A DNA stretch of 64,000 nt from an uncultured Muribaculaceae bacterium. Lineage in GTDB: Bacteria; Bacteroidota; Bacteroidia; Bacteroidales; Muribaculaceae. Below are positions 2-41,571 of this stretch, piece after piece. The notes beneath the pieces are model-generated. The model saw nothing but the letters and a program-made list of their open reading frames with translations, did not search any database and was not told the origin of the DNA. The DNA lies in contig CARDOI010000004.1 in the NCBI GenBank assembly GCA_948960475.1, forward strand, positions 5,012-69,011, written 5' to 3'. The translations under genes were made by a program, and so were the position numbers. How positions within the stretch are numbered: the first letter of the stretch is position 1; the number at the start of each line of letters is the position of its first letter.

Positions 2-232
<231 letters not shown>

Positions 233-329
233 GAGGGTGCCGGAACGCGCGCAACTCCTCATCTACCCTCTCTCCTACTACCGGTCAATCAATAACAGCA
301 CTCAATGGAGTGCCCGCATAACCCATCGG

Positions 330-2636: not shown

Positions 2637-3539
2637 ATGGAACTCCGCCAACTCAAATATTTCGTAAAAACAGCCGAGACACTTAGCTTCTCCGAAGCGG
2701 CCAGAATCTGCTGCGTAACCCAAAGCACTTTGTCACAACAGATAAAACAGCTTGAGCAATATCTCGACAGCCAGTTGCTGATACGTACAAGCCACTCCGT
2801 ACAACTCACCGAAGCCGGCGAAGAACTGTTGCCGTATGCACGGCGTACCTTACAGGATGCAACACTGTGCGCCACTCGCCTCAACGACCTGAAATCATGC
2901 CTCGCAGGCACTCTCAACATAGGTGTGACCTACTCTTTCAGCCCCATGCTCACCGAGACTTTGGTAGAATTCATGAAACTTTATCCAAAAGTCAAGCTCA
3001 ACATATTTTACCGCCCTATGGATGAGCTGATGGAAATGCTAAGGACACGTGAAGTCGACTTTGCGCTCGCTTTCAAGCCCTCCCTGCCCATTCCCGACGT
3101 GGCATCGCACATACTGTTCCAAAATCATTTAGCCGTCATAGTCGGGGAAGGCCATTCTCTGGCCTCATTGGAAAAAGTTACACTCCAGGAACTCTCCCGT
3201 TACGACCTTGCACTCCCGGTGAAAGGGCTACAGGCACGCAATGCCCTGGACCAACTTCTCCTCAAATATCCCTGCGAGCTAAAAATACGCATTGAGCTTA
3301 ACGAAGTGAACATATTACTGAAACTCATACGCCATGGCAAACTTGCAACAATCCTGGCCGAAGCATCCATCCACAACGAGACTGGCGTGAAGGCAATCCC
3401 GATTGACATACCTGACAATGAGATGGCCGGATGCGTACACACACTCAAGGACTCCTACCACAAACGTTCAATGCAGGAATTCATACGCCTTCTCGGCGAA
3501 TCTGCTGCAATAAGGGAGCGCGCCAACGCATGGTTATGA
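2637..3539 (+). CDS. LysR family transcriptional regulator
   Basis: N-terminal wHTH MELRQLKYFVKTAETLSFSEAARICCVTQSTLSQQIKQLE plus a LysR substrate-binding-size C-terminal region. 300 aa. Confidence 0.9.
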   Translation: MELRQLKYFVKTAETLSFSEAARICCVTQSTLSQQIKQLEQYLDSQLLIRTSHSVQLTEAGEELLPYARRTLQDATLCATRLNDLKSCLAGTLNIGVTYSFSPMLTETLVEFMKLYPKVKLNIFYRPMDELMEMLRTREVDFALAFKPSLPIPDVASHILFQNHLAVIVGEGHSLASLEKVTLQELSRYDLALPVKGLQARNALDQLLLKYPCELKIRIELNEVNILLKLIRHGKLATILAEASIHNETGVKAIPIDIPDNEMAGCVHTLKDSYHKRSMQEFIRLLGESAAIRERANAWL

Positions 3540-29733: not shown

Positions 29734-29756
29734 TATACCTGGCATCACAATACAGC

Positions 29757-29798
29757 AAAAGGCGATGTGCATTCCAATAAGGCGGCACATCGCCTTTT
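29757..29798 (+). terminator. Rho-independent terminator of the gyrA-TPR unit
   Basis: Perfect 14-bp stem aaaaggcgatgtgc / gcacatcgcctttt with a 14-nt loop, ending in a T-run. Confidence 0.65.
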
Positions 29799-29905
29799 GT
29801 CATCTTTGCCAGTACCGTCGGCTATTATTTTAGAGATTGTCTAAACTTTTTTCCACAATCTCTTAATCCTGCATTGCCATTTTATGCCCGATAATTTGTA
29901 ATTTA

Positions 29906-31171
29906 GTGGCTGATATGCATTCATTGGAAGATTCTTTTACAATGTCCGGTTCTCAATCCTTAGAGGAGGGACATCCATGCCATTCCGCTTCCCAGCATAC
30001 TACGCAACCTGAAGTGGAGGAAGAAGGCAACGAAAACATAACCAACGAGATTCCGTTCAACCCCAACGATATCTCGATAAACATCGTGCCACGCACCATC
30101 GGCCAGCTGGTCGACATGCTTGAGTACGATGAGATAATTGTGCCACGCTATCAACGTCTGCCCAACCTGTGGTCGCCGAAGAAAAAAAGCCGTTTCATTG
30201 AATCACTGATGCTAAATCTGCCCATCCCCCTCTTCTATTTCGATGAAGGTGAAGACAAGAAATGGCGTGTCATTGACGGACTTCAACGCATCAGCACCCT
30301 GGAACACTTCATATTGGGAGACCGCAAAAACACCATTGGCAAAAACAATACCCCCCTGCGTCTGGAAAACCTTGAGTTCAAGACTGAATTCAACGGAAAG
30401 ACATGGGATGAACTTCCGCGCGAGACACAACGCCGCATCATGACCAGCCAGGTCACCATAAACCTTATCGGGAAAGGCACGCCGGAAGAGGTAAAATACA
30501 ACATCTTCAGCCGCATCAACCAAGGAGGTGTGGAACTGTCGGCACAGGAAATAAGAACGGCATTGTTCCAAGGGTACCGGGTAGATTTTTTAGAAAAACT
30601 CGTCTCGCCCTACACCGAATGCGGTCAAGCGTTCCGTAGAGCCACAACAGGTTCCGTGTCGACCACAAGGCAGCAAGACCTCGACTTCGCCACAAGGTTC
30701 ATCAGTTTCTATCTGATAGGATTCCAACAATACATGCCCGACATGGATACCTTCCTTACGAAAGGAACCAAGTCAATCCCGACCGACATCCCGTCCCAGA
30801 ACAAGATATTCAAAGCGTTCGGACAAGCCATGAAGCTGGCAACCACCATTTTCGAACGCGATGCATTCAGAAAGATAATGATTGGCAAACGGCAGCCGAT
30901 CAACCGCTCCTTGTTCGAAGTGGTAAGTGTACATTTTGCCCAGTTGTCACATTCGGACAGTGAATTGCTGCAATCCCAAAAAGGCCGGTTCATAGATGCG
31001 TTCCTTGAGATGCAGAATGAGCCTGGGTTCATGCAGAGCATAAGCACCGCCACCGCCACCAAAGAACGTGTCAAAAAACGTCACACCGACTTCCTGACAT
31101 TGCTTGAACGTTTCGGCATACGGATTCCAACACAACCATCCCCAAACACACAAACAAATCACAATGATTAG
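29906..31171 (+). CDS. DUF262 domain-containing protein (ParB/Srx-fold, GmrSD N-terminal-like); no DUF1524/HNH nuclease domain
   Basis: VPRYQRLPNLWSPKKKSRFIESLMLNLPIPLFYFDEG...WRVIDGLQRISTLEHF is the DUF262 signature, including DGxQR. The start is either the GTG at 29906 or the ATG at 29915. The first 45 or so aa are low complexity. Confidence 0.85.
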   Translation: MADMHSLEDSFTMSGSQSLEEGHPCHSASQHTTQPEVEEEGNENITNEIPFNPNDISINIVPRTIGQLVDMLEYDEIIVPRYQRLPNLWSPKKKSRFIESLMLNLPIPLFYFDEGEDKKWRVIDGLQRISTLEHFILGDRKNTIGKNNTPLRLENLEFKTEFNGKTWDELPRETQRRIMTSQVTINLIGKGTPEEVKYNIFSRINQGGVELSAQEIRTALFQGYRVDFLEKLVSPYTECGQAFRRATTGSVSTTRQQDLDFATRFISFYLIGFQQYMPDMDTFLTKGTKSIPTDIPSQNKIFKAFGQAMKLATTIFERDAFRKIMIGKRQPINRSLFEVVSVHFAQLSHSDSELLQSQKGRFIDAFLEMQNEPGFMQSISTATATKERVKKRHTDFLTLLERFGIRIPTQPSPNTQTNHND

Positions 31172-32315
31172 GAATTTAAAACTGCATAATTTCAAATCGC
31201 ATAAGGACAGTGATTTTGCATTCAACAATCTGACTGTCCTTTGCGGAGCAAACGGCGTAGGAAAATCATCGGTGGTGCAGGCTTTGCTTGCATTGCGTGA
31301 ATCATATCTCGACAAATCCAATGCCTCCGAACTTCGCTATCTCAATCTGAAAACAGATGCCGTGAATCTGGGCGGAGTGAGAGACACCCTATACCAATTC
31401 GGAGACGACGATTTGATAACACTCGAAATCTCCACGGATTTACAGAATTTTCATTTCAATTTCCAGGCCGACACCCTAAGGAACCCGACAGCCACGATAA
31501 TCCCGGCAGCCCCGCAGGGCCATATCTACGACCATAGTCAGACTGACAAAGAAAGCCTTTTCAACAACAGCTGCCAATACATAAGCGCAGCACGTCTCGG
31601 CCCGCAGGAATCCTATCGGAAAAATGACGCAGTGGTCGTAATCCGCAATCAGATATCCGTGGAGGAAGGGAAGGCGGAGTTTTTCCTCCATTTCCTTGAC
31701 CATAACCGCTATCTGGATGTGATTCCTGCATTACGTCACCCCGATAGCGAAGCCACCGACCTTTTGTCGCAGACCACCGCCTGGGAACGGGAAATAAGCA
31801 AAAACGTGAATATCGTGGTTCAAGATGCACGTGACCTCGGCTACGAATTGCGTTACCAGTTCAGCACCGGCTCATCGGGACGCACCCAGGAATTCAAGGC
31901 CTCCAACGTGGGTTTCGGACTGACTTACGCAATGCCCATAATTGTGGCCCTCCTGTCAGCAACCCCAGGCAGCATCATTTTTATCGAAAATCCCGAAGCG
32001 CACCTCCATCCTGCCGGACAGTCAAAAATGGCTGCACTCATATGCCTTGCTGCACAAGCCGGAATACAGGTCGTTATCGAAACTCATAGCGACCACATCA
32101 TCAACGGCATCCTCGTTAAAATCAAGAATTTTGAAAACGGGCAAAATGGTATCGACCGCAAAAACGTATCGCTATTCCATATCAACCGCGATGACGAAAA
32201 CCATTGCAGTCACGCACATGAAATAAAAATAGACGAAGGAGGAATGATAACCTATGCCCCCGAAGGCTTTTTCGACCAATTTACAATCGACCGTCGCCTG
32301 TTGATGGGCTTTTAA
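31164..32315 (+). CDS. ABC-type AAA ATPase with DUF3696-like C-terminus
   Basis: ORF 31104..32315. The ATG at 31164 overlaps the upstream stop by 8 nt (ATGATTAG). It reads MIRNLKLHNFKSHKD...LCGANGVGKSS (Walker A), SIIFIENPEAHLHP (Walker B/D-loop), ETHSDH (H-loop) and a C-terminal YAPEGFFDQFTID tail. Confidence 0.85.
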   Translation: MIRNLKLHNFKSHKDSDFAFNNLTVLCGANGVGKSSVVQALLALRESYLDKSNASELRYLNLKTDAVNLGGVRDTLYQFGDDDLITLEISTDLQNFHFNFQADTLRNPTATIIPAAPQGHIYDHSQTDKESLFNNSCQYISAARLGPQESYRKNDAVVVIRNQISVEEGKAEFFLHFLDHNRYLDVIPALRHPDSEATDLLSQTTAWEREISKNVNIVVQDARDLGYELRYQFSTGSSGRTQEFKASNVGFGLTYAMPIIVALLSATPGSIIFIENPEAHLHPAGQSKMAALICLAAQAGIQVVIETHSDHIINGILVKIKNFENGQNGIDRKNVSLFHINRDDENHCSHAHEIKIDEGGMITYAPEGFFDQFTIDRRLLMGF

Positions 32316-32381
32316 CGGCCATTTCAGGGATGTCCGAAAACGTGACATTCCTTTACACTGACAAGACATCATAGGCAAAAC

Positions 32382-33140
32382 ATGTATCAAGACCTGCATT
32401 TCTATATTTTGCTTGACCCCAAGCAATATGCCGAAAATGGCAAAGCCTATTTGAATGAACTGTCTGTTTTAGTCAAATATGCTCGTGCGCATCATGCGCG
32501 CCTGTTCTATTTCCAAGAACAGATCGATAAAATCAAACAGGATGACCCTGATTTCGACAAAGGCCATATAATGTCAATGGCCAATATGCTCGATGTACTG
32601 TTGAGAGATGCTGTCCCTGCCAAAAAGCAGCCCCATCTGTTCAACATACATTACCATGAGGATGGCTCGTACCTGCAACCAGTTGAGCCATCGGGAATCA
32701 ATGCCCACCCCCATATTTCCGTGCTTCACAAGAAACAGCACCCCTACACCGAACATGTGTTGCGCCTGACCCAAACCGCACCCCCGGCGCTGATTCATCT
32801 GAACTTCCACAGTTCTCATATCAACATGATGAATTGGATTGTAGGTCTTTTTCCTCGCAATTTCAATTTATCCGACAAGCATGGCGAAAACGGGAAAGGC
32901 AACTGGCCGCACGAATCCGTACTCCTGTGTTCGGCCAGTGATGCACAATCATTGCTCAACACAGCGGTACCCTCAACCAAGTTCAAAGACAAACTCTATA
33001 ATTTCGATACCGCCCACCAGAAATTCATCGAACTTTATTACGAGGGAGACAACCCACAGCACCAATGGCATGGATTCCATGTAGCTGAAAAAGACATAAG
33101 AAGGGTTCCCGACGACATAAGAAAATATTTCAGTAAATAA
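32382..33140 (+). CDS. Hypothetical His-rich protein, third gene of the DUF262/ATPase cassette
   Basis: 252-aa ORF on the same strand, 66 nt after the ATPase gene, followed by a strong hairpin. No family recognised. The C-terminal block reads KHGENGKGNWPHESVLL...AQSLLNTAV...LYNFD...WHGFHV. Confidence 0.6.
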   Translation: MYQDLHFYILLDPKQYAENGKAYLNELSVLVKYARAHHARLFYFQEQIDKIKQDDPDFDKGHIMSMANMLDVLLRDAVPAKKQPHLFNIHYHEDGSYLQPVEPSGINAHPHISVLHKKQHPYTEHVLRLTQTAPPALIHLNFHSSHINMMNWIVGLFPRNFNLSDKHGENGKGNWPHESVLLCSASDAQSLLNTAVPSTKFKDKLYNFDTAHQKFIELYYEGDNPQHQWHGFHVAEKDIRRVPDDIRKYFSK

Positions 33141-33188
33141 AGCATAATACACTCGTCACAGATAAACATAACGGAATTTGCCAAAAGG

Positions 33189-33252
33189 GTGTTGCAATAA
33201 ACCCCGCGTTGCGATGCCTTCAGGCATCTTAACGCGGGGTTTATTGCAACAC
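33189..33252. terminator. Nested bidirectional hairpin (22-bp perfect stem with an inner 6-bp hairpin)
   Basis: gtgttgcaataaaccccgcgtt ... aacgcggggtttattgcaacac, with the inner hairpin gatgcc-ttca-ggcatc. It lies between convergent genes. Confidence 0.6.
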
Positions 33253-33970: not shown

Positions 33971-35455
33971 TCAGCCCACCATAAATTTAACGGAATCTCC
34001 GTTTGCCGAAACCACATACATGCCCGGCGACAACTCCACATTTACATGGCAATCATCCCCCTCTATATGAAACAGGCCGACAGTACGTCCCGCCAAATCG
34101 AAAATCCGCACCACACCTTTGCCGCCATCCTGTATCCCGGTCAACGTCAAGAATCCATTTTCATAACGCGCTCCCATTCCACAACTCGTGCCAGGAGCCT
34201 CCGTTAGCTCCATGCCGGCGATGTCATAAGCAGGGAAGAGAAACATCCCGGGAAACCAGTAGGCCCGTTCCATCGGATAATCACGTATGGCCGTGCCGTC
34301 GGCACGGCATTTCCTGACCATATATTGCGTGGACACAACATCTTTGAACAGTGTCAGATACAACGTTCCGTCAGCTGGATCTATCCCCAACGACGGGCAG
34401 CACACTTTCCATTGGTCGTCATCATCACTGAAATCCAATATGCGTGTTGCCCTCTCCGCGTCCACATCAAACCTGAACACCTCCATATTGGCAAACCAGT
34501 TGTCAGCTCCCCCGGTCCAGTAAATCTCATTTGAATAGCGCGATGCCCGAAAAGTATCAGCACTCCATGCAGCCCACGACGTAGAAGGCCCGTAAACACC
34601 TTCTGGCAAAGGCTCCACCGATGTTTCCAGTGTAGACGGGTCAATCCTGACCAATTTATCAATGGCCGTATAGTAATCATAGGTTTCGTCATACTCCGCC
34701 ACACTGCACCACAACGAACCATCCTTGGATTTCACTATCGAACCTATTATAGCATCAGGCGCGGCACAATCCATTGTTATCACCCGTTCAACAACATCCA
34801 GCACCGGGTCAATCACCAGTACTCCTTTCGACTGATGAGCGGCAAACACCTTCCCCTCTGCCTGCACCATTGCCCCGCATTGCCCGAAGTAAAGCGCACT
34901 GGTAGGGTCACCCACAGGTTTGTTGTCAGTACCGTTGGGATTTTCACTTCCATCCACCTGACCGATGACCGACAAGTTCCGAAGGTCAATCGCCCATATG
35001 CCATTGCTAGACGAGACATATCCCTTATCGGCATCCAACCCAAGGAAAGCACGTCCGCACGCCCGAGCGCCCGAGGGGTCAAGCGCATCAATCTGTCCTT
35101 CCCATCGCAATGTGGCACCGTCCATCACAGTCAGTATTCCTCCTGCAACCGATGACGCAGGGTCTTTGTCGAGCTTGGAAACGACATACAGTTTCCCATC
35201 ATGATACTCCCCGTAGCATGGCGTGCATCCGAGTTCGCGTCCGGGATTCACTTCCCGGAACACCCTATATTGCCAGAAATCGGTTTCCTTTCCAGGTTGC
35301 AGGAAATTCAGGGTACCGCTACCCTTCCCATATTGACTTTCATTGACAATCACAATTCCATCCTTGTAATCCTCAACAGCCGTTGCCGCCGGGCTTCCGT
35401 AAACGGCCACGACAAATGCACATGCGAGATATGATTTTTTCATCATAGGTACCAC
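33971..35455 (-). CDS. YncE/DUF5074-like beta-propeller protein with T9SS C-terminal sorting domain
   Basis: Signal peptide present. IVIVNESQYGKGSGTLNFL matches the NEGnfG..gsL propeller start motif. The C-terminal VVRIFDLAGRTVGLFHI...LSPGMYVVSANGDSVKFMVG resembles a Por secretion tail. Confidence 0.6.
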   Translation of the reverse strand: MVPMMKKSYLACAFVVAVYGSPAATAVEDYKDGIVIVNESQYGKGSGTLNFLQPGKETDFWQYRVFREVNPGRELGCTPCYGEYHDGKLYVVSKLDKDPASSVAGGILTVMDGATLRWEGQIDALDPSGARACGRAFLGLDADKGYVSSSNGIWAIDLRNLSVIGQVDGSENPNGTDNKPVGDPTSALYFGQCGAMVQAEGKVFAAHQSKGVLVIDPVLDVVERVITMDCAAPDAIIGSIVKSKDGSLWCSVAEYDETYDYYTAIDKLVRIDPSTLETSVEPLPEGVYGPSTSWAAWSADTFRASRYSNEIYWTGGADNWFANMEVFRFDVDAERATRILDFSDDDDQWKVCCPSLGIDPADGTLYLTLFKDVVSTQYMVRKCRADGTAIRDYPMERAYWFPGMFLFPAYDIAGMELTEAPGTSCGMGARYENGFLTLTGIQDGGKGVVRIFDLAGRTVGLFHIEGDDCHVNVELSPGMYVVSANGDSVKFMVG

Positions 35456-35477
35456 AAAAGGTGTTTTAAATTGTAAT

Positions 35478-36680
35478 TCAATACTCCCGAAGCAAATGCA
35501 AATCCTGCGCCCGGGAAATCTCGGTCGATGTCTCCCCTATCCAATTGCAATATTGATTCAGGGCAGTGTAAACGCGAATAAAATCCACTCCGGGAAGATG
35601 CACAGGCATCCCATAGGAATCAACCGCCCAACCTATATCGAAACTGCATAAGTCGGCATTGTAATTGGGATGATTATCCACATATCCCCACGGATAACTG
35701 TTCAACTGGAAATAACGGCCATTGCCGTATACATCCAACGCATTGTCGGCCAAACGCGAACCGGTGAATGCCAATTCGTCGGCATCAAGCCATTTGGGAA
35801 AATAATCCTGTGTATGCTGAAAGTTCCTGGCAATATATCCGCTTTCGCCCAATGAATCATGCCAAGGTATATACTCCGCATCAAGAATATAAGGTCCCTG
35901 CGGAACAGCGGGCTTAGAGGAATCAGGCCGTCTGTAGGTAATTGAATAATCGTGTAGGGTCAACGCCGATGAATACTCGCTACCGGCAAGCTCATACCAC
36001 GGATCATCAGGCAGTCCGTTGCCGTTTGCATCCAATGCAACCATTACAATGCCCGGCTCACACGAACCGGCCTTCAGCTCCTCAAAACCCTCCTCATAGA
36101 ACGCATTCCCAAGAATCATAAAATCTTTTTCCCCTTCAACGTTCACAACCGTGTGGTCGAATCCGAAAGTTATATACCCACCGAATCCACCCAGCGACAC
36201 AAGTTCATCGGCCGTCCCGGCAATCGAAGCCTCCGCCTTGGCAATCATATCCGTTTCCCTGTCCCCCGCTTTCCACACAGGCATCTTGTTGATAAACTGC
36301 CCTGGTGCCGGACGATATTCATAAACCCGCGAAAGATACGGGCTGTACTCGATTTCTTCTTCCACAACAATCACCTGGAAATCCTGTCGGAACGGAGCAT
36401 CGGAATCAAGGATTTCAAACTTCAGATGAAACACCCCCTCGCAATCCGAAACAAACATACAGTCGCGTGAAGCCGACAGGACGCGTTCCTTTCCATCGGG
36501 AGACACAGATGTCCAGCGGCATGCCTCACCCGTAAGTTCAGAGCGCAACCGAAGTAGCTGCATCCGATAAACCCGGTATGATTCATCTATGCCCGACTCA
36601 ACCATCGGCACATTGTCCTTACAGCAACAAATACCCGGTGCCGCCAGCAGCATTACAATAGATCTCCACCAACCACTCAT
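35478..36680 (-). CDS. Putative cell-surface lipoprotein (unknown family) in the TonB-receptor locus
   Basis: ORF 35478..36755. The ATG at 36680 overlaps the upstream stop as ATGA. It reads MSGWWRSIVMLLAAPGICCC (lipobox-like), with LVSLGGFGGYITFGFDH and NGNGLPDDPWYEL blocks. Confidence 0.55.
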   Translation of the reverse strand: MSGWWRSIVMLLAAPGICCCKDNVPMVESGIDESYRVYRMQLLRLRSELTGEACRWTSVSPDGKERVLSASRDCMFVSDCEGVFHLKFEILDSDAPFRQDFQVIVVEEEIEYSPYLSRVYEYRPAPGQFINKMPVWKAGDRETDMIAKAEASIAGTADELVSLGGFGGYITFGFDHTVVNVEGEKDFMILGNAFYEEGFEELKAGSCEPGIVMVALDANGNGLPDDPWYELAGSEYSSALTLHDYSITYRRPDSSKPAVPQGPYILDAEYIPWHDSLGESGYIARNFQHTQDYFPKWLDADELAFTGSRLADNALDVYGNGRYFQLNSYPWGYVDNHPNYNADLCSFDIGWAVDSYGMPVHLPGVDFIRVYTALNQYCNWIGETSTEISRAQDLHLLREY

Positions 36681-37882
36681 CGGCAATCCTCCTCTCCATC
36701 CTTTTTCATCAAAAATGCGAGACATGCCGGAATATCGCCGGTACGAACACTCCATTTTTTCTTTCCGTTCTTATCGAAGCAATACAGCACCCCCGAACTG
36801 ACATAATTCCTGGCGTCTGTAAGGAAAATATCCCCGGTTTCAGGATGCACCGCAATCCCATATGGGATTGCGATATTTTTATCCGTACCGTCGGAAATGA
36901 AATTATCGGTAATCACTTCCCCAGTGTTCACATCCACCACGCCATATGACACATGATTGCTCTGGGTCTCATTATTCCACCCTGCTGCGAAATAATACAT
37001 AAGGCCACCGTGAATGGCAAGATTGGAACAAGGCACCTCCAGTTCAAGCGACACTTCATATTCCCCTGTCAGCGCACTCTTTTCCAGTTTGAACAACCGG
37101 GACGGGATATTCCCGTTATTTCCACGAGACGTGACCCACAGACCGCCATATCCGTCTTTCCTTATTCTATGCAGATTTATGGCTACCGGAATCTGCCGCA
37201 CCTGGCGAAAGCTTTCAAGGCTCACGACCGAAATCGTGTAATCATAGTCCGGTGCCCTGTATCCCCCGGAATTGGCAATATACAGGTACCCGTCGGCAAT
37301 CTCCATCTCTTCGGGCTGATACCCAACAGTCACCCGTCGTGTTATCGTCAGTGTCTCCACATCAATTTCATATACCATCCCTTTCGGAGCCTCGGGATTT
37401 ATCTGCACCGGGCCTACATAGGAGCTTACATAGGCCTTCCCATCATAAAACCGTATGTAACGACAATTGGGGATGTCGAGCTGCCCCACACGTATGCCTG
37501 TACCGGCATCCATAACCTCCACTTTATGGGAACAATTTATGACCGCATACAACCGCCCACGATACACCTGCAAATCATTCCCCACATCTCCGAGCTCCTT
37601 TACAACATTCGGGTTACGCTCGGCATATATGTTTCGGCTGAACATTCCCGTGGTATAGTCATAATAATCGAGGCTGCATTTATTGGACCCCATATTGCCT
37701 TCATTAAGAAGATAAAATCCCCTGACGGAAGAATCCGGGAGCATTTCACCCACCGGCTCCTGCTCCGACGGCACCACCACCTCGTCGCCACGGCAACCTG
37801 CTGATGGCAACAACAATGCCACCACACATATGTGCATAATCACGTTGAGCAATCGCATGAATTTGTTCGGCAGACTCATCAT
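36677..37882 (-). CDS. YncE/DUF5074-like beta-propeller surface lipoprotein
   Basis: Lipobox LLLPSAGC. GFYLLNEGNMGSNKCSLDYYD is the propeller start motif, and repeated blade-like segments follow. It lies immediately downstream of the TonB-dependent receptor. Confidence 0.65.
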   Translation of the reverse strand: MMSLPNKFMRLLNVIMHICVVALLLPSAGCRGDEVVVPSEQEPVGEMLPDSSVRGFYLLNEGNMGSNKCSLDYYDYTTGMFSRNIYAERNPNVVKELGDVGNDLQVYRGRLYAVINCSHKVEVMDAGTGIRVGQLDIPNCRYIRFYDGKAYVSSYVGPVQINPEAPKGMVYEIDVETLTITRRVTVGYQPEEMEIADGYLYIANSGGYRAPDYDYTISVVSLESFRQVRQIPVAINLHRIRKDGYGGLWVTSRGNNGNIPSRLFKLEKSALTGEYEVSLELEVPCSNLAIHGGLMYYFAAGWNNETQSNHVSYGVVDVNTGEVITDNFISDGTDKNIAIPYGIAVHPETGDIFLTDARNYVSSGVLYCFDKNGKKKWSVRTGDIPACLAFLMKKDGEEDCR

Positions 37883-37886
37883 AGGT

Positions 37887-39926
37887 TCACATCTCTACGG
37901 AAAGGGTAACCCTGAAGTTCCGTTTGGGCATCGGATAGTTGGCAATCACATCATAATCCTGGTTCAGCAAGTTGCTGACCTCTACAAGAGCACGCATATT
38001 AACGTTATTAACCTTCAAATCCTTGCTCACAGAAACATCCGATGTATACCATGGCTGGGTATAATTGTACAATATGTTTTCCTGCTGGTTATATCGTTCA
38101 CCCACATAAATGAAGCTATAGTTCAAGCCCCAGCCCCGCCAGGACGCATTCAACACGGCTGAACCGCTGTGGCGCGGGATATAGGGAATCTGGTCGCGAT
38201 AATAACTGTCGGCAGGATTGGTTATGTCGATGGCCTCCTGAAAAGTGTATTGCCCCCGCACAGTAAGTTCAAGCGAACTCACCGGGTTGACGGTAACGGC
38301 TGCGGAGACATCAATTCCCTTTATCCTTACTTTCCCGAGATTCAGCATTGTCCACCTGAACTGCTGCCCTTTCGGATATGCTATAATCTTATCCGTGACA
38401 TGATTAAGATAAGCATCGGCACTGATACGGTAACCGCGTAGAAGCCCGGACCGGAAACTTCTGTCAACCAATGCGCCAACATTCCATTGCGTCACTTTTT
38501 CAGGGTCGAGACGGGAATTACCCATGTCGGCATAGTAAAGGTCGTTGAATGTCGGCATACGGAAGGACTGCTTGAAAAAAGCCCGCAACTCAAATGCCTT
38601 GAAACCGCGCAACGGCATAACCGACAAGTAGGCAGCAGGTGTACACTGGCCTTGCTTTTTAGTATCGCCCGAATCAGCCACTTTGTCGCGTATGAATGTA
38701 CCGAGCACACTTGCCTGGAATTTCAATTGCGGCAAATTCAGAGCCGTAGCTATCGACAACAAATGTGTATACCTGTCCGGGCGCAAGAAATCACGCATAT
38801 CCGTTTCCAGGCTGTTCCATTGGAAATCATAACTTGCCGAAACATGCCACATGCGCATTATGCGGAACTGATTGGCGGTGGAAAGATATAACTCCCGCTG
38901 CCGGTAAAGATTGTCCACCCTCACCTGCCGCTCATCGTTGTTCACATAATGAGTGCGGTAAAACGCATATTTGGCATTGAACAAAGTGGAGAATCTTCCC
39001 GCCATGCGCCGGTAACTCCCCTGCACAAAAGAGTTATTGTCCCACTGACGCTCACCGCGCCGCCACACATTATTGACAATAGCCCCGGGGATGCCCCTTT
39101 CCGAATTATAGTGATACCCTTTGAGATGCCATTCGCCGTTATCAAAACTTCCGTTAAGATTCAATTCAAGACGCATGGCTTCTATGTCACCATTTTGTCG
39201 TACCGCCGTGGTATCATAAGCAATCTCTCCCGCAGGATTCACACGCCTGTAGCGGAACTTATATTTTCCCGACGATGAAATCCATTCACCGCTCAACGAA
39301 GCATTTACCGATGGAGACAACTGCAATTCAACCAAAGCCGACGGATTAAGAAGGTCGAAAGAGCCGAACCGTACCGCACCTTTAGCGTTATAGCTTTTAG
39401 TTCCATCGAACCGCGGGGTGCGGGTGCGCATATACACCGCACCGGCATTGCCGAAATCCCTGGCAGGCTGCAGTATTTCACTTTTCTGACCGTTATACAA
39501 CGAAATAGCTTCTATGTTGTCCAATGAAAATTGCCCCAGGTCGATTTGTCCGTTCTGGGCATTCCCCAGTGCCACGCCATCATATACCACCCCGGTATGG
39601 TTGGTGCCCATGGAACGGATATTAACCGTTTTTATACCCCCTACACCCCCATAATCCTTTACCTGCACACCTGAAAAATATCGCAACGCATCGGCCACGC
39701 TATTGGAATTAAGCTTTTCAAGCTGCTTCCCGTCAAGCCGTTGTGCCGGAATAATTTCCTCCTTCGGCCTTGTCGCCGTAACCTCAACTTCTGGCAATGC
39801 CACGCTGTCACGCAGTTCCTGGCCATAAGCCTTATGACCGATGACCACTGTCAGAATCACGGCAACCGCATGGATTATATAGTATAAATTATTTTTGAAA
39901 CCCATTCTGTCAAACATCAGCTCCAT
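37887..39926 (-). CDS. TonB-dependent receptor (BtuB-sized, about 680 aa)
   Basis: Plug domain: EVEVTATRP...SVADALRYFSGVQVKDYGGVGGIKTVNIRSMGTNHTGVVYDGV. The C-terminal barrel ends ...RNFRVTLSVEM. A TACCTTTG -7-like box at 39933..39940 suggests the real start may be a downstream Met. Confidence 0.9.
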   Translation of the reverse strand: MELMFDRMGFKNNLYYIIHAVAVILTVVIGHKAYGQELRDSVALPEVEVTATRPKEEIIPAQRLDGKQLEKLNSNSVADALRYFSGVQVKDYGGVGGIKTVNIRSMGTNHTGVVYDGVALGNAQNGQIDLGQFSLDNIEAISLYNGQKSEILQPARDFGNAGAVYMRTRTPRFDGTKSYNAKGAVRFGSFDLLNPSALVELQLSPSVNASLSGEWISSSGKYKFRYRRVNPAGEIAYDTTAVRQNGDIEAMRLELNLNGSFDNGEWHLKGYHYNSERGIPGAIVNNVWRRGERQWDNNSFVQGSYRRMAGRFSTLFNAKYAFYRTHYVNNDERQVRVDNLYRQRELYLSTANQFRIMRMWHVSASYDFQWNSLETDMRDFLRPDRYTHLLSIATALNLPQLKFQASVLGTFIRDKVADSGDTKKQGQCTPAAYLSVMPLRGFKAFELRAFFKQSFRMPTFNDLYYADMGNSRLDPEKVTQWNVGALVDRSFRSGLLRGYRISADAYLNHVTDKIIAYPKGQQFRWTMLNLGKVRIKGIDVSAAVTVNPVSSLELTVRGQYTFQEAIDITNPADSYYRDQIPYIPRHSGSAVLNASWRGWGLNYSFIYVGERYNQQENILYNYTQPWYTSDVSVSKDLKVNNVNMRALVEVSNLLNQDYDVIANYPMPKRNFRVTLSVEM

Positions 39927-40011: not shown

Positions 40012-41571
40012 TTATCCGAGACCGAAGCAATCCATAATCGCGTCGCGTATCGCCACCGCCTCCGAGCCATCCGATTTCAGAACCGCAAGGACAGTCTGCA
40101 CATAAGCCTCCTTGTTTCCCGGCAACCCACACAACTGCCCTATGTTGGAACGAGGAACCATAGATTTCTGATTATATACCTTAAGGATGGCAGCATAATC
40201 CTCCATCGCGGCAATACGAGAGAACTTCCTACAGAAATCCTCATACAAACCACGGGGATTTATCTCACGCACAAGACCTTGCATGTGTTCTTCCAACGCA
40301 TTTATGTTGGTGAACCGCCCGTCGACACGATATTCGACCGTTCGCTTGACCCTATGACGCGTGTGCAGCAACGCCTGCTGGCGCAAATCATGGCGGAACA
40401 TCTTCACGATAGCACCTTTGACCGAAGTGAAAACCTTTCTCGGGTCATGCCCCGTGAACCTTGCGACAGCCTTGACCACAGGTTCAAGCATCAGTATATT
40501 TTCAATCTCGGCAACCTCCGGCACAAATATGTTCTTTCCTCTAAGATACTCCACCTCCTTTTCATCGCGACGGTCGCGGTCAACGACACCGCAGCTTTCA
40601 AGATGATGAAACGCCCTCAAGTCGTTGAACGCACGTGTTGCCTCAATAACCTTATTGCAGCTACCAAGAGCCTTTACATTGAATTCTTTAAAAATCAGCG
40701 GATAAAGTTTAGCATCTATCGAATGAGTGGCATCACCTTCAATGAAAAGCACAGGACGCCGGGCTCCAATCAGAGCCATATAGACCTCTTCCGAAAGACC
40801 ACTGTCGGACGGCAGCAGGTCGTAGTCCCATGTCACATTATCCGGGTTGAACGAACGCACCCACACTATTGCATTCTCCGAACGCGATGCAGCAAAATCA
40901 ACGTCATGAGTGGTATATACAAACCTACAGTCAGGCCGCATACCCTCTATGGTGTCCCACAGCCGCCTCAAAAGGGAATTATGAAGAAACATTCCTGGAT
41001 TATCCACAAAAATAATCCCATTTGAAGGGGCATACAGCACCGCGCCGAAATAGAACAGGACTGCCTTCTCCCCATGCGACAATTTAATTTGGGAATAAGC
41101 CGTGTTATCACCCTCGCGTGAAAACAGAAGGCCGCCACCTTTGCGGAGCACATGATTATCGGGAAACACATCCTGCCACCGGCGTATCACGGCATCAAGC
41201 TTCGATTCTTCAAGCCGGGCATCGTCACCGCGCGCAACAGCCATCTTATATTCTACCAGCTTCACCATTTCCTCATTCAAAAGCAGCATCATCAGCCGCT
41301 CGAACATTGTTGAGGCATCTGTATGCAGGAATGTGGATGTGGCAAGTGCCTCGGCATAGAGGCTGTCGATGGAACCCGGCCTGGATGCGCCGCGTGATGT
41401 CTCGCAAATTGCATCGAGAGCCGACAGCCGGAACACCTTTTCGCCTAAAGAATCTTCCAGATAGGCCGTGAAACGCGACTTGCCGCTGCCATTGGCACCT
41501 ATTATGGTGACCTGACGCACACCGGCGGGAAGTTCAATCCTTGTTCCGTCTGATTTAGGAGGGAGAAGCAT
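40012..41571 (-). CDS. Fused ABC-type ATPase / DUF4435 (Toprim-like) protein
   Basis: Walker A GANGSGKS, signature-like LSHGEK and Walker B IIFVDNPGMFLH. The C-terminal half has PVLFIEGDATHSIDAKLY ... GVVDRDRR, a Toprim-like Glu plus DxD as in DUF4435. Confidence 0.75.
   Translation of the reverse strand: MLLPPKSDGTRIELPAGVRQVTIIGANGSGKSRFTAYLEDSLGEKVFRLSALDAICETSRGASRPGSIDSLYAEALATSTFLHTDASTMFERLMMLLLNEEMVKLVEYKMAVARGDDARLEESKLDAVIRRWQDVFPDNHVLRKGGGLLFSREGDNTAYSQIKLSHGEKAVLFYFGAVLYAPSNGIIFVDNPGMFLHNSLLRRLWDTIEGMRPDCRFVYTTHDVDFAASRSENAIVWVRSFNPDNVTWDYDLLPSDSGLSEEVYMALIGARRPVLFIEGDATHSIDAKLYPLIFKEFNVKALGSCNKVIEATRAFNDLRAFHHLESCGVVDRDRRDEKEVEYLRGKNIFVPEVAEIENILMLEPVVKAVARFTGHDPRKVFTSVKGAIVKMFRHDLRQQALLHTRHRVKRTVEYRVDGRFTNINALEEHMQGLVREINPRGLYEDFCRKFSRIAAMEDYAAILKVYNQKSMVPRSNIGQLCGLPGNKEAYVQTVLAVLKSDGSEAVAIRDAIMDCFGLG

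Follow-up and report, generated by a model that had tools for sequence, protein, structure and literature searches.

A probable Type I Menshen (NsnABC) anti-phage operon as an accessory insertion in a Muribaculaceae chromosome

Three consecutive genes in a 64,000-nt stretch of DNA from an uncultured Muribaculaceae bacterium (GenBank assembly GCA_948960475.1, contig CARDOI010000004.1, positions 5,012 to 69,011 of the forward strand; hereafter, the window) raise the question of whether they constitute a new anti-phage system. A reading made without database searches (hereafter, the sequence-only reading) had described them as a hairpin-bounded cassette of a DUF262 protein (gene A), a DUF3696-type ATPase (gene B) and an orphan His-rich protein (gene C), and had proposed an immune module with possible novelty in gene C and in the gene order. 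We conclude, with a probability of roughly 0.9, that these genes form a Type I Menshen (NsnABC) anti-phage operon, present as an accessory insertion between a TPR-protein gene and a DUF4136 lipoprotein gene of the chromosome. It is a real defence system but an already known one, a textbook copy of Menshen.

The open reading frame (ORF) table and the raw sequence agree with the sequence-only reading on three ORFs on the + strand (coordinates in Table 1). At the A/B junction (cacaATGATTAGg) the ATG of B at 31164, which sits within ATGATTAG, precedes the TAG of A at 31169–31171, so that the two genes overlap by 8 nt, and C follows B after a gap of 66 nt. A longer form of B starting from TTG 31104 was dropped, because the alignment to the NsnB model already begins at the first residue of the shorter ATG 31164 form, which is also the form called in other assemblies. 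All three proteins were assigned to Menshen by PADLOC: A to NsnA (3.5e-116, 387 bits; residues 32–399 on model positions 22–381 of 385), B to NsnB (2.8e-100, 334 bits; residues 1–381 on model positions 1–343 of 345), and C to NsnC (2e-43; residues 1–251 on model positions 1–269 of 274) and to no other PADLOC model. The caveat recorded with the sequence-only reading, that a DUF262 protein paired with a DUF3696 ATPase is the content of Menshen, was therefore right. Because PADLOC assigns all three genes to a described system with the same architecture, no novelty is left to the cassette, including its order, A-B-C being canonical for Menshen (PMC12065111) and recurring in the six genomic contexts described below.

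Among Menshen systems, phage resistance has been demonstrated in that of Solibacillus silvestris StLB046 alone, whose anti-phage activity was validated by experiment (PMC12065111, citing Millman 2022), and resistance was lost on mutation or deletion of its DUF262 gene (PMC10952713). Li et al. 2025 catalogued 1997 Menshen systems, 15.5% of them in Bacteroidota, in which NsnA combines a ParB-DUF262 domain with a helical DNA-binding domain, NsnB, an ABC ATPase, has EN for DE in Walker B and a GxG signature, followed by a DUF3696 helix, and NsnC joins an inactive PIN-like N-domain to a C-terminal effector that is most often a BECR RNase (PMC12065111).

These traits were recovered in genes A and B, where every motif quoted in the sequence-only reading is present and Pfam agrees with its two domain assignments. 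In A, the ParB-like domain (Pfam GmrSD_N/DUF262, 2e-24, residues 65–218) contains motif I with its QR-x4-W spacing, motif II (residues 121–125) and motif III (residues 198–202), and the coverage of its C-terminal half by the PADLOC model indicates, by sequence, that the NsnA-type (ParBDB) domain is present. The locus is classified from its sequence as Type I, i.e., without an extra folded sensor domain N-terminal to DUF262, because only ~64 non-domain residues precede that domain. This stretch is acidic, polar and of low complexity, has no Pfam domain, and was not seen in the 377–398-residue NsnA proteins of more distant loci. The start of NsnA (ATG 29915, or alternatively GTG 29906 or ATG 29942) is uncertain, because TTTG-type promoter-like motifs stand only 10–20 nt upstream of 29915. 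In B, Pfam detected AAA_15 (8.8e-28), AAA_21 (7e-22) and DUF3696 (2.6e-10, residues 330–376), YAPEGFFDQF is present, and the EN Walker B and GxG signature are the variants described for NsnB (PMC12065111).

Gene C had been said to belong to no recognisable family. This holds for Pfam, which found no domain in it, and for NCBIfam, which returned nothing specific for A, B or C, but the product of gene C matches the PADLOC NsnC model over its whole length and is a canonical NsnC rather than an orphan. It is indeed rich in histidine (21 of 252 residues, 8.3%). Its family comprises at least 436 clusters at 50% identity (exhaustive profile search, E ≤ 1e-3), and most of the clusters listed were full-length proteins of 250–300 residues. 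A search of ~5.8 billion non-redundant proteins, clustered at 90% identity, yielded 48 NsnC homologs, none with a Pfam domain. In the alignment, the invariant residues (R159, K166, H167, G168, E221, H230, H233 and P243) are concentrated in the C-terminal 100 residues, and the polar ones all fall in the C-domain. No acidic residue is invariant across the N-terminal 150 residues, and residue 10, after strand 1, is Leu here against Asp in 73% of homologs. In this NsnC the putative PIN-like domain seems catalytically dead, which favours a single-nuclease reading for this subfamily.

AlphaFold2 models supported a two-domain NsnC (predicted local distance difference test score, pLDDT, 91). The isolated C-domain (pLDDT 87) was modelled as a helix (36–44) followed by strands 55–60, 65–72 and 79–84, plus short bridges. 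Its best match in the PDB by Foldseek was 5T87 (chains E–H, probability 0.91–0.99, template modelling (TM) score 0.59–0.63 on target) at 21–22% identity, the best chain reaching 22% over 64 columns. The short chains of this entry are the CdiA-CT toxin domain of Cupriavidus taiwanensis, from contact-dependent inhibition (PMC9111745; chain lengths agree). The HigB2 toxin appeared at rank 17 with a probability of 0.15. Searching the viral folds of BFVD with the C-domain gave no match, nor did the full-length model have any match with E ≤ 0.001 in the PDB; the SPOUT methyltransferases at the top of the latter search were disregarded (TM < 0.2). By analogy with the effectors described for Menshen, the catalytic domain of NsnC is probably a C-terminal BECR-type RNase domain, with K166/H167, E221, H230 and H233 as the candidate active site.

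To the check proposed with the sequence-only reading, whether homologs of C co-occur with A and B, the genomic contexts gave a clear answer. NsnC homologs were preceded by a GmrSD_N gene and then an AAA_15/DUF3696 gene, all in the same orientation, in 6/6 contexts, with different flanks each time: the species itself, a sister lineage with 79% NsnC identity (L008), a Bacteroidales contig where the genes lie between HU and Mfd, a 110-kb metagenome contig, Candidatus Symbiothrix, and a Nitrospirae metagenome-assembled genome. The B-C gap is 61 nt in the sister lineage, and B and C abut or overlap in more distant homologs. In these contexts, the Pfam families listed for genes up to ~6 kb away included neither an integrase nor a transposase.

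The cassette is also not a fixed feature of the family. A search of one genome per GTDB species identified 13 Muribaculaceae/Bacteroidales relatives whose TPR protein is 69–84% identical. ClpB-GyrA-TPR is kept in 13/13 of these, and NsnA, NsnB and NsnC are nearby in 0/13. One relative (L021, 10185–10301) shows the empty site, with the TPR gene followed by DUF4136 and ~115 nt with one hairpin between them. Two others have a minus-strand gene for a multi-pass membrane transporter of ~430 residues at the TPR/DUF4136 site (L022, 10470–11762; L023, 11363–12646). The cassette is thus an accessory, lineage-specific insertion, and the TPR/DUF4136 junction may be an insertion hot spot.

Taken feature by feature, the cassette has all the testable defining traits of Menshen, including a co-directional A-B-C order linked across genomes, and does not have those of GmrSD, PD-T4-2 or PARIS. 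It shares with the S. silvestris StLB046 system the same three proteins in the same order, DUF262 motifs I–III and the C-terminal domain in an NsnA that has no DUF1524, the EN Walker B, GxG signature and DUF3696 tail of NsnB, and a two-domain NsnC with a putatively PIN-like N-domain lacking catalytic acids and a small C-terminal toxin-like domain. The differences are matters of detail: it departs from that system in the ~64-residue acidic extension of NsnA, in a 66-nt B-C spacer instead of abutting genes, and in its gut Muribaculaceae host.

Several observations weigh against this reading. The sensor, transducer and effector roles are unproven, deriving from domain analogies and AlphaFold models. 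The fold support for NsnC is modest: Foldseek E-values were 0.06 or worse, and because the E-value of the 5T87 match is only 0.06 we regard that match as supportive rather than conclusive. The PIN-like matches of the full-length protein were weak (8kd9_E and 1v8p_B, ranks 46 and 50, probability 0.11–0.14); the second of these, named PAE2754 in the Foldseek results, is taken here to be the same protein as PDB 1V8O, the entry cited by Li et al. The C-domain could not be placed by sequence: matches were at chance level only, both in a profile search of the PDB and when 27 family members were scanned with Pfam. As to acquisition, the cassette lies on no recognisable mobile element, and a search for direct and inverted repeats and transposon ends revealed no target-site duplication, the repeats flanking the cassette being short and at chance level. 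Its GC content deviates little from that of the window (47.6% versus 49.5%, ~2 points lower). Because the sister lineage (79% NsnC identity) has the cassette at the same site, the acquisition was not very recent. No restriction-modification (R-M) or BREX system was found in the neighbourhood, in which the locus again differs from that of S. silvestris.

Genes A and B also resemble parts of other defence systems, and the readings that build on these resemblances are the least credible of those considered. Gene A could belong to a different DUF262 system, either PD-T4-2 or a modification-dependent restriction system of the GmrSD/BrxU/SspE kind, with the ATPase and gene C as unrelated neighbours: the Pfam name of its domain is GmrSD_N, it matches PD-T4-2_A (4.6e-29) and a type II restriction endonuclease model (1.1e-11), and in GmrSD, BrxU and SspE, too, a helical DNA-binding domain comes after a ParB-like DUF262 NTPase module. 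However, these enzymes carry a fused DUF1524 HNH-type nuclease, whereas Pfam finds only GmrSD_N in A, with neither DUF1524 nor another nuclease domain, and Menshen leaves the output to NsnB and NsnC; type IV restriction was rejected on this basis. PD-T4-2 was rejected as well, its model scoring 100 bits against 387 bits for NsnA, with B and C matching NsnB and NsnC; no PD-T4-2 partner model was among the PADLOC matches of C or the 25 best matches listed for B. Given further that B overlaps A by 8 nt and that A-B-C are linked in 6/6 contexts, we consider this reading already refuted and accord it next to no probability. An equally negligible chance is left for B and C as an ATPase-effector pair of the PARIS, Septu, Gabija or AbiL type, with an incidental DUF262 gene. 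The next-best PADLOC families of B after NsnB were HEC-03B (1.7e-33) and AriA (3.7e-30), and B also matches AbiLi (6.6e-18) and the GajA and PtuA models (1e-13 to 1e-15). PARIS (AriA/AriB), Septu (PtuA/PtuB) and Gabija (GajA) likewise have an OLD-type ABC ATPase (AAA_15/AAA_21), whose presumed task is to hold or control a nuclease effector, and the predicted NsnB4-NsnC2 complex has been likened in architecture to Septu and PARIS. Against this, NsnB scores 334 bits and the AriA, AbiLi, GajA and PtuA models at most 104 bits (AriA), the DUF3696 tail and EN Walker B are NsnB traits, and C matches only NsnC, without a DUF4435/Toprim or HNH domain. Menshen differs from these systems in its separate DUF262 sensor, its DUF3696 tail and a PIN-like plus BECR-type effector instead of Toprim/HNH. 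PARIS was rejected for the cassette on the AriA score and the absence of a DUF4435 domain, and Septu and AbiL on scores and domain content. At the family level this reading is already refuted, and what remains is a mechanistic resemblance.

Two other readings accept the Menshen assignment and question its function. In one, which is very unlikely, the operon is a decaying or domesticated relic without current function. Its fixation at one site has lasted long enough for NsnC to diverge to 79% identity, and it lacks mobile-element hallmarks, yet several independent metagenome contigs carry all three ORFs intact, no diagnostic motif or invariant residue has been lost, and the promoter-proximal region is conserved. 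In the other, somewhat less improbable but still unlikely, the operon acts mainly against other mobile DNA (plasmids, conjugative elements) or is a selfish addiction module of the toxin type. In its favour are the generic DNA sensing predicted for NsnA, the likeness of the NsnC C-domain to a polymorphic-toxin domain, the presence of related KH-motif BECR domains in toxin-immunity pairs, and the retention of the cassette at a single chromosomal site in two lineages. On the other side, the Menshen archetype was validated against phages, and the cassette contains no immunity or antitoxin gene, because the gaps of 66 nt and 121 nt leave no room for one. Moreover, a tblastn search of 72,556 plasmids and 50,697 phage records for NsnC homologs yielded 0 matches, so there is no evidence that this NsnC subfamily travels on sequenced mobile elements.

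If the cassette is a Menshen operon, the model of Li et al. 2025 suggests how it would work. Incoming DNA would be bound by NsnA through its ParB-like DUF262 NTPase domain and C-terminal DNA-binding domain, and NsnA would then stimulate the NsnB ABC ATPase. NsnB, a predicted GajA-like tetramer, would clamp the PIN-like N-domain of NsnC between its DUF3696 tails until ATP binding or hydrolysis releases or activates NsnC, whose C-terminal RNase domain may then cleave phage or host RNA and stop the infection, possibly by abortive infection. The immune module proposed in the sequence-only reading stands, but not its assignment of the sensor role to the ATPase, since the published model has NsnA (DUF262) as sensor, NsnB as transducer and NsnC as effector (PMC12065111).

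The NsnC subfamily may be placed more precisely. For a lineage termed BECR-Tox2-like, which in most cases forms the C-domain of Menshen effectors, the hallmarks described are a KH motif on an N-terminal extension and, close to the last strand, a second conserved His; toxicity in E. coli was observed for one polymorphic-toxin member (bioRxiv 10.64898/2026.08.28.747851). By description only, NsnC is alike (KHGENGKGNW...WHGFH), with K166-H167 on the N-terminal extension and H230/H233 on the last strand. The preprint argues for an active PIN domain alongside this lineage, whereas this NsnC and its family have no invariant acidic residue there. We put forward, as a speculation that we rather doubt, that the subfamily is a KH-motif BECR-Tox2-like lineage with a truly dead PIN domain, and that the TPR/DUF4136 junction is a terminator-flanked recombination hot spot at which cargo (empty, transporter or Menshen) is swapped without integrase or transposase. 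If true, a dead-PIN lineage of this kind would bear on whether Menshen effectors contain single or dual nucleases, on which Li et al. 2025 and the 2026 preprint differ. The locus adds one Type I Menshen to the ~2000 catalogued, ~15% of which are in Bacteroidota, and means little beyond annotation. It could be used to test how Menshen works, being compact, intact, from an abundant gut family, provided with a clear empty-site comparator, and lacking the Asp at NsnC residue 10.

Table 1 Coordinates of the cassette, its motifs and its borders in the window.
Feature	Position	Strand	Description
Left hairpin	29756..29799	+	After the TPR-protein gene (stop 29733); left border of cassette
nsnA upstream region	29800..29914	+	TTTG-type motifs ~29892-29906; palindrome 29829-29866
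nsnA (A)	29915..31171	+	418 aa; DUF262 domain, then C-terminal NsnA-type domain
NsnA N-terminal extension	29915..30106	+	Acidic, ~64 aa
NsnA DUF262 domain	30107..30568	+	GmrSD_N/DUF262
NsnA motif I	30152..30172	+	QR-x4-W, within YQRLPNLW
NsnA motif II	30275..30289	+	DGLQR
NsnA motif III	30506..30520	+	FSRIN
nsnB (B)	31164..32315	+	383 aa; ABC-type ATPase with DUF3696 tail
NsnB Walker A	31245..31268	+	GANGVGKS
NsnB signature	31911..31919	+	GFG
NsnB Walker B	31974..31997	+	IIFIENPE, with EN dyad
NsnB H-loop	32082..32096	+	THSDH
NsnB DUF3696 tail	32151..32291	+	
nsnB-nsnC spacer	32316..32381	+	66 nt; weak hairpin (-15.6 kcal/mol, z -2.4), no convincing terminator
nsnC (C)	32382..33140	+	252 aa; putatively PIN-like N-domain and toxin-like C-domain
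NsnC N-domain	aa 1-~150		Alpha/beta, putatively PIN-like, apparently inactive
NsnC C-domain	aa ~151-252		Toxin-like; KH motif KHGENGKGNW 32877-32906, YEGDNPQHQWHGFH 33039-33080
Right palindrome	33189..33252	.	Between convergent nsnC (stop 33140) and DUF4136 gene (stop 33262, - strand); right border of cassette

The hairpins that the sequence-only reading placed on both sides of the cassette are real, and the weak fold of the B-C spacer agrees with its statement that no clear hairpin lies there. The left hairpin has a perfect 15–16 bp stem followed by a T-rich tail, TTTTGTCATCTTTG (−36.6 kcal/mol, z −7.3); the 15-nt arms of its inverted repeat are 100% complementary, an equivalent hairpin occurs in related lineages, and it is likely an intrinsic terminator closing the gyrA-TPR unit. 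The right palindrome has 31-nt arms of 94% complementarity (+ strand, −54 kcal/mol; − strand, −58 kcal/mol; z about −8 (−8.6)), occurs once in the window and is not a repeated element, and is likely a bidirectional terminator. Because a simple terminator scan flagged neither hairpin, probably owing to its loop-length and T-run rules, these roles are drawn from structure and position.

One same-species metagenome contig (L006, ~3010–3082) lacks 51 nt of the right palindrome (window 33186–33236). The gap lies between short GGGT repeats; the deletion may be genuine or may reflect collapse of the hairpin during assembly. In two otherwise near-identical contigs (L003 and L005, 3778–4185), the DUF4136 gene was called with 135 instead of 204 residues, which suggests a frameshift or sequence difference at its 3' end, beside the cassette.

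Upstream of nsnA, the region listed in Table 1 is presumed to hold the promoter, and its last ~70 nt before the gene are conserved with the sister lineage. An imperfect palindrome in the same region (TTTAGAGATTGTCTAAA / TTTCCACAATCTCTTAA) is absent from that lineage and could be an operator or an insertion remnant.

Downstream of the DUF4136 gene, an operon on the − strand (33971–39926) encodes two DUF5074 beta-propeller-like proteins, a 400-residue hypothetical protein and a TonB-dependent Plug receptor. Also conserved in the sister lineage, it resembles an ordinary locus for outer-membrane uptake, unconnected with the cassette. Beyond it, ~7 kb from the Menshen cassette and separated from it by the DUF4136, DUF5074 and TonB-receptor (Plug) genes, a second, solitary defence gene (40012–41571, − strand) encodes a 519-residue fused AriAB of PARIS (PADLOC, 2e-94), for whose counterparts in related contigs the gene calls list AAA_21 plus DUF4435.

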